Shown piece after piece: positions 5,701-11,700 of a stretch of 44,231 nt of DNA (positions within the stretch are counted from its first letter, which is position 1; each line of letters starts with the position of its first letter). Both the position numbers and the translations under genes were made by a program. Source of the stretch: Octopus sinensis (taxonomy: Eukaryota); assembly GCF_006345805.1 (NCBI RefSeq), contig NW_021829910.1:1-44231 (forward strand), in the 5' to 3' direction. Below the pieces are notes generated by a model, which had not been told where the DNA came from, searched no databases, and saw only the letters and a list, made by a program, of their open reading frames with translations.

Positions 5701-8700
5701 TTAGATTCGATAATAAACTATATCGACAGATAAAAGGACATCACTACAGAGACGAGGTTCGCACACATTCCCGCACCCAGAGGTAGATATACATATGTGT
5801 GTATATTTCTGAGAGCATACGTATGTATGTGCGTATAAGTGCGTGTATTTGTGTGGATATGTGTGTTGATACGTAGATAGGCGAAGCGGATACTCGAGGT
5901 TGTGCAAGTCAAGTAAGAAATAAACACGAAACGGCTGCCACATTAAGACATTCTTCGTCTTCTTCTTCTTCTTCTTCTTCTCTTCTTCTTCTTCTTCTTC
6001 TTCTTCTTCTTCTCTTCTTCTTCTTCTTCTTCTTCTTCTTCTCTTCTTCTTCTTCTCCTCCTCGTCCTCCTTCTCCTCCTCTCCTCCTCCACTCCTCATC
6101 TCCTGCTCTCTTCTTTTTCTTCCTTTCATTCTAAAGCCACAGTTTTTGATGTCGTATCACAAATATTTTCCGTCTAATCTTTTTATTCTTTCTTTACTGC
6201 TATAGAGATCTGCAGGATAACAATATTGCAACCATCCAAGAAGGTGTATTCACGGGGCTTAAGAATTTAAAACAATTGTAAGTTCGTTCAGTTTCTTGAT
6301 ACTATATTCCGAAAGTAATATTTGACGCTGATATATACACACATTGCCCAATAATTTTTCAGACTGCACTATACAAGAACAATTCAAATTTGGGGACCGA
6401 ACACGATTTAGGAAGATACAAAGAGGGAGTAAGTGAGCGAGACACAAACAGAGAAAGAGGGAGAAATTGAGAGAGAAATTAAAATAATACGACAAATTTA
6501 ATGTTCCTTTATTACAGTTGCTTTGTTTCAATTCGCGTCACCATAACTCATATTCGAGCCTCAAATTTCAATGATTTCTATATGAATTTGTATTAGAAAT
6601 GGTAACGTTTGTGTGTTTACATGTTTGCATCAAATATGTTTAGCAGAAGTATGTGAGTATGTCCATATCTAAGTGTAATTCTGTGTGAGATGTGACTATA
6701 TTATTCCATTATTTTATTGCAATTCCATTCTTCTTCTTCTTCTCTTCTTCTTCTTCTTCTTCTTCTTCTTCTTCTTCTTCTTCTTCTTCTTCTTCTTCTT
6801 CTTCTTCTTCTTCTTCTTCTTCTTCTTCTTCTTCTTGTATTTTCCTGTAATATTGTTCCTATACATAAAGAAAAATATTCAATATTTTATTGCAATTCCA
6901 TATTAAGTCAAACTAAGCAATATTGTTTTCTGCTTCAGATCTCTAAAGGACAATAAAATTTCGAGGATTGAAAAAGAGATGTTTCAAGGCCTTCAGAACT
7001 TACAGGAATTGTAAGTCCTTTCAATGTTGTCGTTTATACATGAGGAATATAATGTGTCTTTAAATTAAATATTCCCTGATTTCTATTTATTCTCACTCCC
7101 TATTACTTGAAGTTATAATCACTTTTCATATTCGTGTTATATTTATTTGATTGTGTCTGAACATGACAATGTCTGGCAGTTGATAATCGTCTGCATCAAA
7201 ATTTTATTCCTGAAAACGTGTATGTTCACATATGTATGAGTGTGTCTGTAGTGTTATAATACCTATGTTTTAGCTACTGTTTCGTTTCACATTGTTCTCT
7301 TGATTCTTGTGGTAACGTGTGGTTATTTATCCACAGTTCCGCCGAAATAATTTCCTCTTGTTTTATTTCTTCTTCTTCTTCTTCTTCTTCTTCTTTTTTT
7401 CCTCCTTTTTCTTCTTCATTTTTCTTATGCTCTCCTCCCCTTCCTCCTCCCTCCTCCCCTCCTTTCCTCCTCCCCTCCTTCCTCCTCCCCTCCTTCCTCC
7501 TCTTCTTCCTCCTACTCTTCCTCCTACTCTTCCTCCTCCTTCTCCTCCTCCTTCCTCCTCAACCGCTTCTCCTATACTCCACCCCTCCTCCTTTCCTCCT
7601 CCCCCTCCGTTCCTCCTCCCCTCCTCTTCCTCCTCTTCCTCCTTTCCTCCTCCTCCTTCTTCGTCGTCGTTATCTGTCTTCATTTTTCTTCCTTTCATTC
7701 TGAACCCCCTTGTTTGATGTTTTTTCACAATTATTTTTCATATAATCATTTTTATTCTTTCATTACTGCTATAGAATTCTGTGGAACAACAAAATTTCAA
7801 CCATCGAAGAAGATGTATTCACGAGGCTTTCCGATTTAACGTCATTGTAAGTTCGTTCAGTTTCTTGATACTATATTCCGAAAGTAATATTTGATGCTGA
7901 TATATACACTCATTAACCAATAATCTTTCAGACTGCACTAAACAAAATCAATTCAAATTTGGGGACCGAACAGGAGTTTGGAAGATACAAAGAGGGAGTA
8001 AGAGAGCGAAACATAGTGAGAGAAAGAGGGAGAAATTGAGAGAGAATGTGAAATAATTGGACAATTTTAATGTTCCTTTATTGCTGTTGCTTTGTTTCAA
8101 TTCGTGTCACCATAACTCATTTTTGAGCCCCTAATTTCAATGATTTTACTTGAATTTGTATTAAAAATGGTAACATTTGTGAGTTTACATGTTTGCATCA
8201 AATATTTTTAGCAGAAGTATGTGTGTATGTTCATATATAAGTGTAGTTCCGTGTGCAATGTGAATATATTATTCTTTATTATATAATTTGTATCCTTCAT
8301 TTCTTATTTCAATCTTTTTCGTGTTTCGATATTATCATTCAACTTCGACTTTTTCATTCACATCACTTTATTTAAGTGATAAACCAACTGAAGTGGAAGC
8401 GGAAAATAAATATATACGAATAATGTCGTCACATACATTCTCTCTGTAAACCTGAAATCCTTACTGCACATTTAAGCAGGAATATTTGGCCTGATACAAT
8501 TTAACTGCTGATATATTTCTAGTTAGAGGGGCTTTTCTAATATAATTTTCTTCTGTCAATTAAGCGATATGAGATTAATAATCTCTCTCGCCATATTTCC
8601 ACACAGGTGAGTGAGAATATGTGTGAATGTGAGTGTGCGTATCACCTTACGTCGTTCATATTATGAATATAAGCATGTGTATGAGTGCATTCAAATATGT

Positions 8701-11700
8701 TGATTTCTGAGTCCGTATATTCCCTCATTTTTCAGCCATGTTCTCTCCCTCAAACGTTTGTTCCCTGTCCCTGAAATATCTCCTGTTATTTCTTTGACTA
8801 CATTTTCTGTTTCGCCTTCTTGAATACCAAGATTTTCAATGTGTCTTCTTCTCTTCTTCTTCTTTTCTTCTTCTTCTTCTTCTTCTTCTTCTTCTTCTTC
8901 TTCTTCTTCTTCTTCTTCTTCTTTTCTTCTTCTCCTTTTTCTTCTTAGTCTTCTTTCTTTTCCTCTTCTTCTTCTTCTTCTTCTTCTTCTTCTTCTTCTT
9001 CTTCTTCTCTTCTTCTTCTTCTTCTATTTTTTCAGAAACTTTCTCCTGTACATTCTGCTTTGTCAATTTCCTCCTTCTTTTTCTTTCTCTTTTACTTGTT
9101 TCTCCTATTCTCATTCGCCTCCTCCTCCTGCCCATTCTGCCCCGCCTCTCTTCCCTCCTTCTCTCTCCTCCTCGCCTCCCCTCCTTCACCCTCCTTTTAC
9201 TCCTTCTCCCCGCATTATCCTCTTTCGCCTCTTCGCCCTCCTCCTCCTCCTTCATTTTATTCTCCTTTTCCCCCTCCCTTTCTCCTCCCTTCCTCCCTTC
9301 TTCCTCCTCTTATTTCGTCTACTTCTTCTTCTTCTTCTCCTTTTTCTTCTTCTTCTTCTTTTCTTCTTCTTCTTCTTCTTGTTCTAGTTGTTGTTGTTGT
9401 TCTTGTTCTTGTTCTTGTCCTTGTTCTTGTTCTTCTTGTTCTTGTTCTTTTTCTTCTTCTTCTTCTTCTTCTTCTTCTTTTTCTTCTACGTTATATGTCT
9501 TCCTTTTTTCCCTTTCATTCTAAAGCCATATTGTTTGATGTTTTATCACTAATATTTTCCATCTAATCTATTTTACTCTTTCTTTACTTCTGTAGAGATC
9601 TTGACGGCAACGACATTTCGACCATCAAAGATGGTTCCTTCAATGGGCTTTCGAATTTAACGAAATTGTAAGTTCGTTCAGTTTCTTGATAATAATTTCT
9701 GAAAGTAATATATGATGCTGATATATAAACTCACAAATGTATGAACGTTCAGACTGCAATAAGCAAATCAATTCAAATTTGGGGACCGAACAGGAGTTTG
9801 GAAGATACAAACAGGGAGTAAGAGAGCGAGACACAATGAGAGAAAGAGAGAGAAAGAGAGAGAGAAAGTGAAATGATAGGACAAATTTAATGTTCCCTTA
9901 TTGCAGTTGCTTTGTTTCACTTCAGGTCATCCTAAATCAATTTTGATCCTCAAATTCCAATGACTTTTATATGAATTTGTATTAGAAATGGTAACGTTTG
10001 TGAGTTTACATGTTTGCATTAAATATTTTTAGCTGAAGTATGTGAGTATGTTCATAAATAAGTGTAGTTATAAGTGTAAAGTGTGACTATATTATTCCTT
10101 TATTTTATAATTTGTCTCCTCCTTCATTTCTTATTTCAATATTCTCTTTCGTGTTTCGATATTGTCATTCAACTTCTTCTTCTTCTTCTTCTTCTTCTTC
10201 TTCTTCTTCTTCTTCTTCTTCTTCTTCTTCTTCTTCTTCTTCTTCTTTCGTTAACGCTCTTCTCTTTCTTCATTTAATTCTAAAGCCACAGTTTTTGATG
10301 TCGTATCACAAATATTTTCTATATAATCTATTTTACTCTTTCTTTACTGCTATAGAGATCTGCGGAACAACAAAATTTCAACCATCAAAGAAGGGACCTT
10401 CACGAGGCTTTCGAATTTAAACTACTTGTTAGTTCGTTCAGTTTCTTAATACTATTTTCTGAATGTTTCCTTTGTACTGATATATTTTCTCTCAGAAACG
10501 TATAAACTTTCAGAGTGCACTATCTTCTTATTCTTGTTCTTCTTGTTTTACTTGTTCTTCTACATCTCCTCTCCTCTCCTCCTCCTCCTTCTTCTTCTTC
10601 TTCTTCTTCTTCTTCTTCTTCTTCTTCTTATTTCTTTCTCTCCTTTTTCTTCTTAGTCTTCTTCTTTTCTCTTCTTCTTCTTCTTCTTCTCTTCCTTCGT
10701 CTTCTCTTTGTTGTTTCGTCTTCTTTTCCTTCTTCTTGTTCTTGTTCTTCTTTTATAGTCAATTTATAGGTACCCAGTATATATCTTCTACCAAAAGGTG
10801 AGCATTGTTTTGTGTACTTTGAATAGGATTCTGAAAGTTATGCACTGGTCTGAAGATGGTCAATGTTATTGCAATAATTAATAGTTTATTGTTTTGAAAA
10901 CCATTTTTATCATTACACTGCTACTGGAGTATATACTTTTACTATTCCTTGTTTCAGTTATCACAATGCGGCCATGCTGGAGTACTACCTCCAAGCGTTT
11001 CCTCGAACACATCGTCCTTAGTACTGAATTTTTAAAACCTGGCACTTAATCAGTCGGGTACCTTTTGCGGAACCACTATGTTACGGGGGACGTAAACAAA
11101 CCAATATTGGTCATCAAGCGTTGGTGGGGATAAACACAAAGACAAACACACGCATATATATATTATATATATATATATATATATATATATATACACACGA
11201 AGGGAATCCACACAGTTTCCTGCAGCAAATTTACTCACAACGCTTAGTTGACCCAAGGTTATAGTAAATGTTATTTGTCCAAGGTGCCACACAGTTGGAC
11301 TAAAGAATCCATGGATGTGAGAAGTAATTTTCTTGCCACAGAACCATGCCTATATGGAGAATGATATTTCTACCATAGATGAGAATGTTAACTAAAACCC
11401 ATATTGTGCACATAAGAAAGTCTCCTTGTTATTTTGTTATTTTTGTATTTTATTCCCTTCCATCTGTTGCTGTTTTGTTATCAGATTTTCTCTTAGGATA
11501 ATTAAATTAGATTGAAGGAACTTATTCTTCTTCAAACAACACTTCCCACAGAACTATGAAGAGAAACAAACAATTGTAGTGTGTAATATCAGCATTTACC
11601 CTGTTAGTGTTGACTAAAACGCAATTTAGTACTAAACAGGAGTAAACAGATTTATTTATTTTTACTTATTTTAAAGTATGTAATATTTGTCTCTTTTTCA

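Follow-up and report, generated by a model that had tools for sequence, protein, structure and literature searches.

A tandem array of one-repeat LRR exons in an Octopus sinensis gene that very probably encodes an adhesion GPCR

The window, the whole 44,231-nt stretch of Octopus sinensis DNA analysed here, is one whole small scaffold (NW_021829910.1). It carries a gene with a long, modular ectodomain that comprises, in order, an N-terminal hydrophobic helix (putative signal peptide) with LRRNT, six LRR exons, LRRCT and at least three Ly6-like Cys domains, at which point the scaffold end cuts the gene. The features are as follows:

2514..2724, +, exon for the signal peptide (from the hydrophobic helix) and LRRNT (E 6.8e-5), ATG 2534, phase 2 end
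5948..6133, +, (CTT)n/(CCT)n tract ahead of E1
6114..6205, +, upstream intron block of the type-A cassette E1, with copies ahead of E3, E4 and E5
6206..6277, +, LRR exon E1, type A, 72 nt, phase 2-2
6278..6717, +, downstream intron block of E1, about 440 nt, ending in 8-nt microhomology
6728..6836, +, (CTT)n tract ahead of E2, with 31 perfect units at 6744-6836
6939..7010, +, LRR exon E2, type B, own flanks, missing from the O. vulgaris counterpart model
7350..7671, +, tract ahead of E3, (CTT)n then (CCT)n
7775..7846, +, LRR exon E3, type A
7847..8346, +, downstream block of E3, then about 500 nt of unique sequence
8839..9494, +, composite (CTT)/(CCT)/(CTT) tract ahead of E4
9596..9667, +, LRR exon E4, type A
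9668..10176, +, downstream block of E4, meeting the next tract directly via 4-nt CTTC microhomology
10173..10247, +, perfect (CTT)25 ahead of E5
10356..10427, +, LRR exon E5, type A, GTTAGT donor
10428..10523, +, downstream block of E5, shortened to about 95 nt, abutting a tract
10523..10756, +, degenerate (CTT)n tract 3' of E5
11702..11773, +, LRR exon E6, type C, terminal capping repeat, conserved, with flanks of its own
20476..20633, +, LRRCT exon, phase 2 to 1, possible alternative in-frame acceptor at 20425
23371..26043, +, intronic tandem duplication of 1321 nt with a hybrid middle tract, both edges within (ACAT)n, 9 mismatches
27230..27321, +, Cys-rich (Ly6/three-finger-like) domain 1, exon A1
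29293..29476, +, Cys-rich domain 1, exon B1 (UPAR_LY6_2 E 0.1)
34455..34546, +, Cys-rich domain 2, exon A2
36517..36700, +, Cys-rich domain 2, exon B2
39350..39441, +, Cys-rich domain 3, exon A3
41412..41595, +, Cys-rich domain 3, exon B3
43741..44231, +, intron ahead of a fourth Cys unit, acceptor just past the window end

All six LRR exons are bounded by AG..GT, measure exactly 72 nt in phase 2-2, as an earlier sequence-only reading had stated, and encode one LRR apiece; the span of 5950..10750 given in that reading leaves exon 6 outside. In a control list of AG..GT windows of 72 nt whose acceptor is pyrimidine-rich (30 over both strands), an LRR-pattern translation occurred only in these six, five of which singly match Pfam LRR_8 (E 2e-4 to 3e-3). 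Neither nhmmer nor six-frame hmmsearch found a seventh or decayed cassette, including inactive or inverted intronic LRR exons, anywhere in the 44-kb window. The E5 donor, previously called weaker, does read GTTAGT, but in a simple tally of matches to the donor consensus it scores 6 out of 11, equal to E1-E4, because its -3 base compensates; the description as weaker thus rests solely on the unusual +3 T.

The host gene is very probably an adhesion GPCR from an octopus-expanded family, since its O. vulgaris counterpart (P0004, which groups with the O. sinensis model P0002 at support 89/93) runs on 3' of the Cys part into SEA-like, GAIN and GPS domains (GPS E 9e-11, weak GAIN E 0.03). The P0004 model extends only to the first hydrophobic helix and holds no full 7TM; 7tm_2 (PF00002) is found in the family members P0019 (E 7e-34) and P0025 (E 3e-37), the latter with an HRM domain alongside, and a secretin-type 7TM also in the relatives P0028, P0037, P0039 and P0043, with a Death domain in P0039 (E 3e-6). 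The domain after the Cys unit aligns to region 375-506 of GPR126 (ADGRG6), which it resembles in a fold search (Z 7.7, rmsd 3.0, 85 aligned). GAIN/GPS and 7TM lie outside the window, as the scaffold stops within the ectodomain, and many family models also end without a 7TM. P0002, the NCBI model on this scaffold, agrees with our exon model: it splices all six 72-nt LRR exons together and its LRRCT exon is 100% identical. NCBI names it 'protein slit-like'. Slit has four LRR domains, EGF repeats, laminin G and a cystine knot, and we reject this identity, as there is one LRR domain here and no EGF/LamG match in P0002 or its relatives. Membership of the ROCO family was likewise rejected, with no ROC-COR GTPase Pfam match among the 14 family proteins scanned. 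The sequence-only reading was silent on the host gene, on a selection signal and on exons outdiverging their flanking introns.

Exons E1, E3, E4 and E5 share their flanks, as had been proposed: an upstream block of about 85-110 nt (82-93% identity over 85 nt) and downstream homology of about 440 nt among E1/E3/E4 (86-89%), about 500 nt between E3 and E4, and only about 95 nt for E5, with the intron arms of the four type-A cassettes 82-94% identical. Each of the four is preceded by a (CTT/CCT)n tract, again as described. Exons 2 and 6 do have different flanks, but exon 2 also has a long pure tract upstream, ending 102 nt before the exon. All 12 (CTT)>=6 runs of the 44-kb window fall within 5959-10688, on the + strand and never as (AAG)n, and in every array intron a tract separates the part typed to the upstream exon from the part typed to the downstream exon. 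An exact, interrupted 25-mer is common to the tract before E4 (8931-8955) and the tract after E5 (10639-10663); this, together with the single orientation of all runs, indicates that the tracts are inherited with the cassettes, by descent. The three shortened downstream blocks all stop at, or no more than 19 nt from, a (CTT)n tract, at different, non-homologous offsets (about 95, 440 and 500 nt), with 0-8 nt of microhomology and, at the E1 block end, a templated 19-nt piece (6710-6728 duplicated at 6883-6901). The junctions at tracts look like deletions with microhomology. The downstream intron of E3, the longest, is probably ancestral-like. The cassettes are also mosaic across the exon, E1 resembling E5 upstream and E3 downstream. 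The longest shared runs are significant (permutation P 0.0006 for E1/E5, 0.008 for E1/E3), as are the breakpoints that max-chi-square places in the downstream block (P 0.005, 0.024); a Fisher test of the upstream/downstream tree switch gave only P 0.07, and a runs test for exchange was non-significant (P 0.12). As the breakpoints map to unique sequence close to the exon, exchange appears to occur in unique homology as well.

In the 3' half of the gene, the Cys units are mutually 96-99% identical. The unit has a ten-Cys pattern with a CCxxxxCN end; its profile gives weak matches only (activin receptor ectodomain E 0.047, LYPD1 E 0.97), its model has pLDDT 34-62, and fold-search matches there are to other domains. 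The O. vulgaris counterpart has one such unit and P0016 (O. sinensis) two. Cys exon A differs at 11/92 positions against 58/2565 (P 1.6e-5), with 8 amino-acid changes. Three of the five rearrangements of at least 100 nt have edges that fall within (ACAT)n or (TA)n tracts, which make up about 10% of the sequence there: the 1321-nt duplication, whose copies are 99.3% identical, and two indels (136 and 115 nt) that lie between tracts. The other two are away from repeats: the junction of the Cys-unit duplication (30622/21590) and, at 38658, a deletion of 2.3 kb.

The duplicated LRR exons have diverged more than the introns around them. Differences amount to 19/72 in the exon versus 58/502 in the intron for E1/E3 (P 0.0014), 21/72 versus 74/501 for E1/E4 (P 0.0037) and 24/72 versus 85/503 for E3/E4 (P 0.0019), that is, 26-33% against 12-17%, with dN 2.0-3.1 times intron divergence. 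Over all six cassette pairs, which are not mutually independent, the ranges are 21-33% for exons and 12-23% for introns, and the excess is non-significant in the three pairs containing E5 (P 0.48, 0.74 and 0.16). By NG86, dN exceeds dS in just three of the six pairs; in every pair dS lies above the intron divergence as well, on some 15 synonymous sites and inflated by multi-hit codons, which leaves room for a contribution of homogenised introns to the exon excess. The excess is concentrated in four concave-face codons, module positions 1, 3, 4 and 23. Among unique modules taken from other family proteins, these are the four most variable positions in 56 type-A and, separately, 22 type-B modules; the 78 modules carry 69 different 1-3-4 triplets, and their convex-face solvent-side positions are nearly fixed. 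In the window, 8/8 first and second positions of the four codons are polymorphic versus 56/176 intron columns (32%; P 1.6e-4), and only 1/8 amino-acid-invariant codons varies at its third position. In an AlphaFold model (pLDDT 81-98 across the LRRs) the beta-strands, at 115-117, 139-141 and so on, correspond to module positions 23-24-1 and straddle the exon junction. Because the excess sits in the codons that are also most variable family-wide, these sequence comparisons point to diversifying selection on the four concave-face codons. For its octopus adhesion GPCR groups, Ritschard 2019 (PMC6408891) found that no individual sites were under selection. Judged by its O. vulgaris counterpart, the array at this locus is not hypervariable between the two species: four modules are identical and one has two residue differences.

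LRR copy-number variation, which the sequence-only reading had anticipated, is borne out at the level of gene models. Among the 16 N-terminally complete family proteins, LRR number runs from 2 to 14 and 13 arrangements occur, composed of two cassette types (A and B) and a cap; the proteins are predicted ones, some of them faulty (P0006 has out-of-frame stretches), exons may be omitted from them and some are isoforms of a single gene. P0010 (2 LRR) and P0016 (10 LRR) are sisters (support 100/98) whose constant parts are 96-97% identical, and P0004 has five modules, lacking E2, in otherwise the same order as the window. The paralogue models P0014/P0015 and P0022/P0023 differ only by whole modules and are identical elsewhere. 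At this locus in-frame skipping is possible (arithmetically, E1-E5 allow up to 32 in-frame subsets), and exon skipping is suggested only by those paralogue models; in the family, predicted skipping probably adds isoforms.

We consider it probable that this array provides an octopus adhesion GPCR with its variable ligand-binding ectodomain, built by cassette shuffling and diversification, the full domain order being LRRNT-LRRn-LRRCT, Ly6-like, SEA-like, HRM, GAIN/GPS and 7TM. In the germline, intron arms of about 600 nt would allow cassettes to misalign, and unequal crossover or gene conversion would then duplicate, delete and exchange them, both within one paralogue and across paralogues. When the ancestral cassette was copied, its (CTT)n tracts would have been copied too, and they would serve as fragile, microhomology-rich joints where deletions and cassette-type switches end, not as the sole crossover substrate. 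Selection would hold the scaffold constant and diversify module positions 23, 1, 3 and 4. Each beta-strand would join position 23 of one exon to position 1 of the following exon across a split Leu codon; since the strand spans the exon junction, any gain, loss or skip of a cassette would also yield a new strand combination. Signal output would pass via the GAIN/7TM part.

Unequal crossover between microsatellites, as the sequence-only reading had it and as proposed for the GA repeats of SpTransformer, might instead be the chief cause of LRR gains and losses. The confinement of all long (CTT) runs to the array, the type-dividing tract in each array intron, the truncation of all three downstream blocks at or near a tract and, in the same gene, the (ACAT)n-edged duplication and the two indels between tracts speak for it, and GAA/TTC repeats are described as triplex-forming and unstable in passages of PMC6983365 and PMC11667243. 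However, tract-to-tract crossover predicts one downstream block length where three were seen, each block joined to its tract through 0-8 nt of microhomology. Pyrimidine tracts cover about 22% of the array, so that junction-tract coincidences are not rare by chance, and the common ancestry of the tracts means that they are not independent observations. Mosaic breakpoints fall in unique sequence, and the 30622/21590 junction and the 38658 deletion are not at repeats. Because the junctions look deletional and exchange maps to unique sequence, the crossover claim is only partly supported, and as the main engine we regard it as unlikely.

The locus might also be an ordinary LRR gene, with old tandem exon duplications, passenger tracts, conversion-homogenised introns, an unconstrained surface and one main isoform. 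One LRR per phase-2 exon is common, for example in gonadotropin receptors and ROCO (passages of PMC11378527), microsatellites make up 12% of the window, the array is almost the same in two Octopus species, dN exceeds dS in just half of the cassette pairs, and the NCBI name of the gene model carries no isoform number. Yet unconstrained sites would match intron variation, whereas all eight vary and synonymous positions of conserved codons hardly do; the near-invariance of the convex face and the repetition of the excess in Cys exon A also count against such a gene, which we consider improbable. An assembly or annotation artefact, in which joined haplotypes or paralogues pass for tandem copies and faulty gene prediction accounts for the variable LRR counts, seems very improbable for the array: its cassettes are far above allelic divergence in both introns and exons, five keep their order in a second species, and paralogue modules differ by sequence as well as number. 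The small scaffold, the near-identity of the Cys units and of the 1321-nt copies, and the single Cys unit in O. vulgaris favour an artefact, although P0016 has two such units; false skip junctions can arise from cross-mapped paralogue short reads, and NCBI adhesion GPCR isoforms are often artificial exon combinations according to passages of PMC6667449. The risk is real only for the 3' duplications, where an artefact is a minority possibility, and for isoform claims. We retain cassette shuffling and diversification as the preferred explanation.

Agnathan VLRs run from an LRRNT through variable modules of 24 residues to a conserved terminal module and an LRRCT. The octopus gene is alike in all of these and in its concave-face variation, and VLRA (3m19) is the second-best Foldseek match (target TM 0.76, 32% identity), with Nogo receptor, NGL, Slit and LGR4 matching the LRR part about equally well. 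VLR genes, however, are germline-incomplete and somatically assembled from flanking cassettes by deaminase-driven conversion (PMC13428168), whereas the octopus gene is complete, its cassettes are spliced exons and the 44-kb window holds no donor reservoir. Sea-urchin SpTransformer (Sp185/333) is another diversifying invertebrate family, in which short tandem repeats edge duplicated units, partly as in octopus, and its GA/GAT flanking repeats are proposed to promote duplication and deletion (PMC8634487). The duplicated unit there is a whole gene, while in octopus it is a single exon with its intron arms.

Other adhesion GPCRs differ in architecture. ADGRA receptors (GPR124/125) carry LRRs followed by Ig, and GPR126 has CUB-pentraxin; we know of no ADGRE2/ADGRE5, ADGRG6 or ADGRA member that combines LRR, Ly6-like, SEA-like, HRM and GAIN with a hypervariable solenoid. 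In EMR2/CD97 (ADGRE2/ADGRE5) splicing varies the number of N-terminal domains, as in 72% of the mouse adhesion GPCRs examined in the relevant passages of PMC6667449. Group 3 of Ritschard 2019 is, in the passages devoted to it, an octopus-specific adhesion GPCR expansion with GPS/7TM, LRR in 5/22 and Death in one, arranged in tandem clusters and under branch-level positive selection (PMC6408891). The LRR, Death and GPS set agrees with the relatives of our gene, a likeness by domain set alone; LRR cassettes, hypervariable sites and a Cys-rich domain are not described in those passages.

The brown-algal ROCO genes likewise have one LRR per 72-nt phase-2 exon in variable number and, in the passages concerned, four concave-face sites under diversifying selection, skip isoforms and a proposed role as pathogen receptors (Zambounis 2012, PMC3341825; Teng 2024, PMC11378527). 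Our gene resembles them in concave-face diversification, seen in the window codons, family entropy and strand positions. In contrast to the cytosolic LRR-ROC-COR GTPase, the octopus LRRs are extracellular on an animal adhesion GPCR, with two cassette types plus a cap, their own intron arms and (CTT)n tracts between them, and the window is free of inactive or inverted intronic LRR exons; the word 'microsatellite' is absent from the Zambounis 2012 text. The ingredients are thus individually precedented in brown-algal ROCO, sea-urchin SpTrf and EMR2/CD97; for the full combination in an animal GPCR we found no precedent in the literature searched.

As to purpose, we rank first the recognition, at exposed epithelia, of non-self ligands that change fast, a judgement about as open as an even call; a neuronal adhesion code ranks below it as a doubtful candidate, and chemotactile sensing seems unlikely. 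Passages of Ritschard 2019 (PMC6408891) report high group-3 expression in C. minor gills and, for O. bimaculoides, in axial nerve cord, suckers and skin. In its design of interchangeable one-LRR exons, the receptor resembles by analogy the recognition receptors that have diversified in lampreys and brown algae. It is conceivable, if a long shot, that octopuses possess their own diversified set of receptors, a fast-evolving adhesion GPCR family in which hypervariable exon cassettes are combined into LRR solenoids through germline shuffling and regulated skipping, so that individual cells display different concave surfaces. If so, the CU-rich tracts 100-150 nt upstream would act as splicing silencers, the concave surfaces would serve pathogen recognition or neuronal self-recognition, and the system would be a Dscam/VLR analogue wired straight to G-protein signalling.

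Our verdict is that the LRR ectodomain encoded here, on what is very probably an octopus adhesion GPCR, is built from cassettes and positively selected. All six 72-nt, phase 2-2 LRR exons claimed by the sequence-only reading (E1 to E6) were recovered; among 30 control windows of 72 nt, an LRR-like frame was seen in E1 to E6 alone, and profile searches of the window returned no additional, donor or decayed LRR cassette beyond them. E1 to E5 lie inside the interval 5950..10750 that had been assigned to the array, whereas E6 lies outside it. An open-frame scan placed the first exon and the LRRCT exon and found three two-exon Cys-rich units, a fourth being cut by the window end.

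Exons of the window gene; E1 to E6 are each 72 nt, bounded by AG..GT, phase 2-2, with a single LRR
2514-2724, plus strand, first exon, signal peptide and LRRNT (open-frame scan)
6206-6277, plus strand, LRR exon E1
6939-7010, plus strand, LRR exon E2
7775-7846, plus strand, LRR exon E3
9596-9667, plus strand, LRR exon E4
10356-10427, plus strand, LRR exon E5
11702-11773, plus strand, LRR exon E6
20476-20633, plus strand, LRRCT exon (open-frame scan)

The flanks said to be shared by exons 1, 3, 4 and 5 could be measured: the upstream 85 nt are 82-93% identical, and downstream the homology runs for about 440 nt among E1, E3 and E4 (86-89% identity), for about 500 nt between E3 and E4 and for about 95 nt in the E5 block. 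All 12 of the window's (CTT)n runs of at least six units fall within 5959-10688, on a single strand. Tracts do precede exons 1, 3, 4 and 5, but E2 also has its own, 102 nt upstream, and the GTTAGT donor of E5, described as weaker, has an unusual T at +3 but matches the consensus at as many positions as those of E1 to E4. The cassette observation is real and non-random, and was partly misread. A scan of 5900-11800 with Rfam for hidden ncRNA gave no match in the intron arms, the blocks shared by these cassettes, and three chance miRNA matches inside an (AT)n run. Looping-out of exons by pairing between the upstream CU tract and the downstream purine block was set aside, because duplex energies were just 1.8-2.6 SD below shuffles and the control, mononucleotide shuffles, was lenient.

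With the LRRCT exon as query, 25 proteins were retrieved, all from Octopus. The best match, P0002 of O. sinensis, is annotated 'protein slit-like, partial' and agrees with the exon model built here; the name 'slit-like' was dropped. In the closest other protein, P0004 of O. vulgaris, E1, E3, E5 and E6 are unchanged, E4 carries two changes and E2 is absent, and a single Cys unit is followed by GAIN/GPS. Further family members extend to a secretin-type 7TM, some with HRM, and these relatives therefore make it very probable that the window gene encodes an adhesion GPCR and that its 3' half falls beyond the scaffold. The family matches what Ritschard 2019 (PMC6408891) report for an octopus-specific adhesion-GPCR expansion, of which it may be part: LRRs in 5 of 22 members, a Death domain in one, and expression in axial nerve cord, suckers and skin, and in gills in C. 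minor. A cytoplasmic Death domain lies behind the 7TM in P0039 (residues 1203-1277, Pfam E 3e-6).

Among the best fold matches of the LRR region were VLRA, Nogo receptor, NGL, Slit and LGR4. The domain following the Cys unit has a ferredoxin-like fold, with GPR126 region 375-506 one of many matches (Z 7.7); its SEA-like assignment is weak, since the top match is MscK (Z 9.6) and many ferredoxin-like folds are level with GPR126. The Cys unit has a weak Ly6/three-finger likeness. Its domain model is of low pLDDT, and no three-finger protein was among the 50 fold matches listed, though a longer list could hold one; ESM Atlas yielded nothing usable for either the Cys domain or the LRRCT-Cys-SEA region. 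A tree from the constant parts (14 family rows and one outgroup) was mostly unresolved, with one of ten inner branches starred, and a search with the distant member P0043 gave two matches among 668 candidates, adding one further protein. Several family models (P0003, P0005, P0008, P0013, P0022-P0024 and P0029) extend no further than HRM and a second SEA-like piece and lack GAIN/7TM, so the family may include secreted or truncated forms. In P0049 (O. vulgaris, named MIB2-like), the family LRR array is joined to ankyrin repeats, either a gene-model fusion or a real domain shuffle. An in-frame upstream acceptor at 20425-20475 would add 17 residues ahead of LRRCT; the extension occurs in eight O. 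vulgaris models and reflects either alternative splicing or prediction error.

To compare arrays, 21 of the 25 LRRCT-exon matches were split into 24-residue modules; P0017, P0019, P0025 and P0026 (a fragment, a duplicate of P0018, or distant) stayed outside the set, as did P0047-P0053. Internal modules are of two types, A (like E1, E3, E4 and E5) and B (like E2), and a terminal cap, C (like E6), is the final module in 18 of the 21 proteins. The claimed variation in LRR copy number holds across the paralogue models: 16 proteins with a complete N-terminus have 2-14 modules in 13 arrangements, counts that come from predicted proteins, some faulty and several possibly isoforms of one gene. Across the 14 proteins compared, the LRRCT and Cys part is 82-100% identical. 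P0014 and P0015 (O. sinensis, annotated as isoforms X6 and X3) differ by whole modules alone, as do P0022 and P0023 (O. vulgaris). Short reads from paralogues can mimic exon skipping. Knierim 2019 (PMC6667449) cautions that adhesion-GPCR isoforms at NCBI are often artificial, and from the gene models we regard skipping as probable but unproven.

Exon divergence exceeds arm divergence in E1/E3 (19/72 vs 58/502), E1/E4 (21/72 vs 74/501) and E3/E4 (24/72 vs 85/503), with P of 0.001-0.004. E5 has short arms, and none of the three pairs that include it shows a significant excess; dN is above dS in just three of six pairs, on about 15 synonymous sites. An ordinary neutral array we consider distinctly unlikely. 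A sharper test took its sites from family modules excluding the window gene and P0004: the four positions of highest entropy were 1, 3, 4 and 23, in 56 A and in 22 B modules, and 69 distinct 1-3-4 triplets were found among 78 modules. At window codons 1, 3, 4 and 23, all eight first and second positions vary, against 56/176 intron columns (P 1.6e-4); silent variation occurs in one of eight invariant codons. Strands in the P0002 structure model cover residues 115-117, 139-141 and so on, and the first residues of the modules are 117, 141 and so forth, so that in the model each beta-strand runs from position 23 through the split Leu to position 1, with positions 3 and 4 directly after; with a strand built across modules, any change of neighbour would yield a new strand. 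Ligand binding by the beta-sheet face is established for LRR proteins (PMC11378527). A like excess is found in exon A of the Cys unit (11/92 vs 58/2565, eight amino-acid changes). Exon A1 (27230-27321) differs from A2 (34455-34546) and A3 (39350-39441) at 11-12 of 92 nt and eight residues, on a background about 2% diverged; A2 and A3 are closer to the paralogue P0022 and A1 to P0004, a pattern that points either to selection or to a paralogue having donated an exon-sized conversion tract.

How the cassettes move is a separate question. The tracts share an interrupted 25-mer and one orientation, so they derive from the ancestral cassette and do not count as independent. Microsatellite-mediated unequal crossover had been proposed, and three shortened downstream blocks do stop at tracts, but their offsets are unequal (about 95, 440 and 500 nt). 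One truncation joint runs through CTTC, one lacks microhomology, and one has an 8-nt overlap and 19 nt that were copied out of the intron upstream of E2; differing offsets and joint types thus seem better fitted by a fragile repeat at which sequence was deleted or the template was switched than by tract-to-tract crossover. Instability of GAA/TTC is documented (PMC6983365, PMC11667243). At informative sites E1 goes with E5 upstream in 4/6 and with E3 downstream in 6/7 (P 0.07 by Fisher test, 0.0006 and 0.008 for shared runs, and 0.12 in the runs test), and these mosaic arms, with breakpoints in unique sequence, indicate that cassettes are exchanged in unique homology near the exon too. We hold it unlikely that the tracts were the main crossover substrate. 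In the 3' half, three of five placeable rearrangements have repeat edges, repeats of such kinds making up about 10% of the region.

Placeable rearrangements of 100 nt or more in the 3' half
23371-26043, tandem intronic duplication of 1321 nt, both edges in (ACAT)n, hybrid middle tract, 9 mismatches
136-nt segment, rearranged between (ACAT)n tracts
115-nt segment, rearranged between (TA)n tracts
30622/21590, Cys-unit junction, edges not in repeats
38658, 2.3-kb deletion, edges not in repeats

The 1321-nt duplicate is single-copy in the paralogous stretch 32322-33558. From 26736 to 44231 the Cys unit recurs in tandem, in four or more copies with periods of 7225, 4895 and 4885 nt and 96-99% identity, and relatives have 0, 1 or 2 such units; the tandem is either a recent expansion or an assembly join. 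The near-identical 3' copies could be assembly joins, and we rate an artefact there as rather unlikely, whereas an artefactual LRR array is very improbable.

Open frames of 191 aa at 29831-30600, 37298-37873 and 42193-42768, a putative retroelement remnant, are duplicated along with the Cys units, and a remnant of similar look lies at about 5040-5780. On the minus strand of the E6-LRRCT intron, three decayed elements (14097-14696, 16624-18202 and 18770-19339), presumably non-LTR retrotransposon copies, carry reverse-transcriptase-like and C-terminal zinc-finger/endonuclease-like motifs, and between two of them identity is about 68%. At 18154-18570, a 43-nt unit repeated 7.6 times, a 23-nt unit repeated five times and (TTA)21 follow one another, both units being made of sequence around the reverse-transcriptase active site, where one retroelement is truncated. 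A near-perfect (97%) 140-nt inverted repeat at 208-506 lies within an element with an inverted relative at 15933-16430 (75-87% identical), and a short dispersed repeat, which we take to be SINE-like, has copies at 3220-3300, 12268-12423, 21916-22061 and elsewhere (69-80% identity).

The best reading, and one we think fairly likely, is germline cassette turnover: symmetric exon cassettes would be duplicated, lost and exchanged through their intron arms, with the tracts as fragile joints; four concave residues would be under diversifying selection, cassette exons would probably be skipped, and the signal would leave through an adhesion-GPCR chassis. Since the gene is already whole in the germline, somatic assembly of the VLR type is unlikely; VLRs are put together somatically, starting from an incomplete gene (PMC13428168). 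We doubt that single cells diversify the repertoire in the manner of Dscam or VLRs. The octopus gene works like the cassettes of brown-algal ROCO genes, where LRR exons are 72 nt long and in phase 2, four concave sites are under selection and some isoforms skip exons (PMC3341825, PMC11378527); it is not itself a ROCO, however, nor is it a VLR or a Slit. Duplications edged by short tandem repeats are described for SpTransformer (PMC8634487), and domain number altered by splicing for EMR2/CD97 (PMC6667449). In the open-access literature, with subscription journals mostly outside, we found no account of an octopus LRR cassette system, and in passages from a 2026 immune-diversification review (PMC13428168) no diversified antigen-type receptor for cephalopods was encountered. 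As for function, the way selection is distributed, the turnover within the family, the relative with a Death domain and published gill expression lead us to prefer non-self recognition to neural adhesion and chemotactile sensing, a preference held with about as much doubt as conviction.

The locus is a concrete, testable candidate: its cassettes are defined, as are four putative residues for specificity, its isoforms are predicted to stay in frame, and it has a chassis for signalling. Rearrangements with microsatellite edges can be dated, so that in octopus genomes structural change driven by repeats can be tested directly. Should the claims on isoforms and copy number not hold, a lineage-specific receptor family under positive selection would still stand; if the candidate is borne out, a mollusc reached the VLR/ROCO design independently, on a GPCR.
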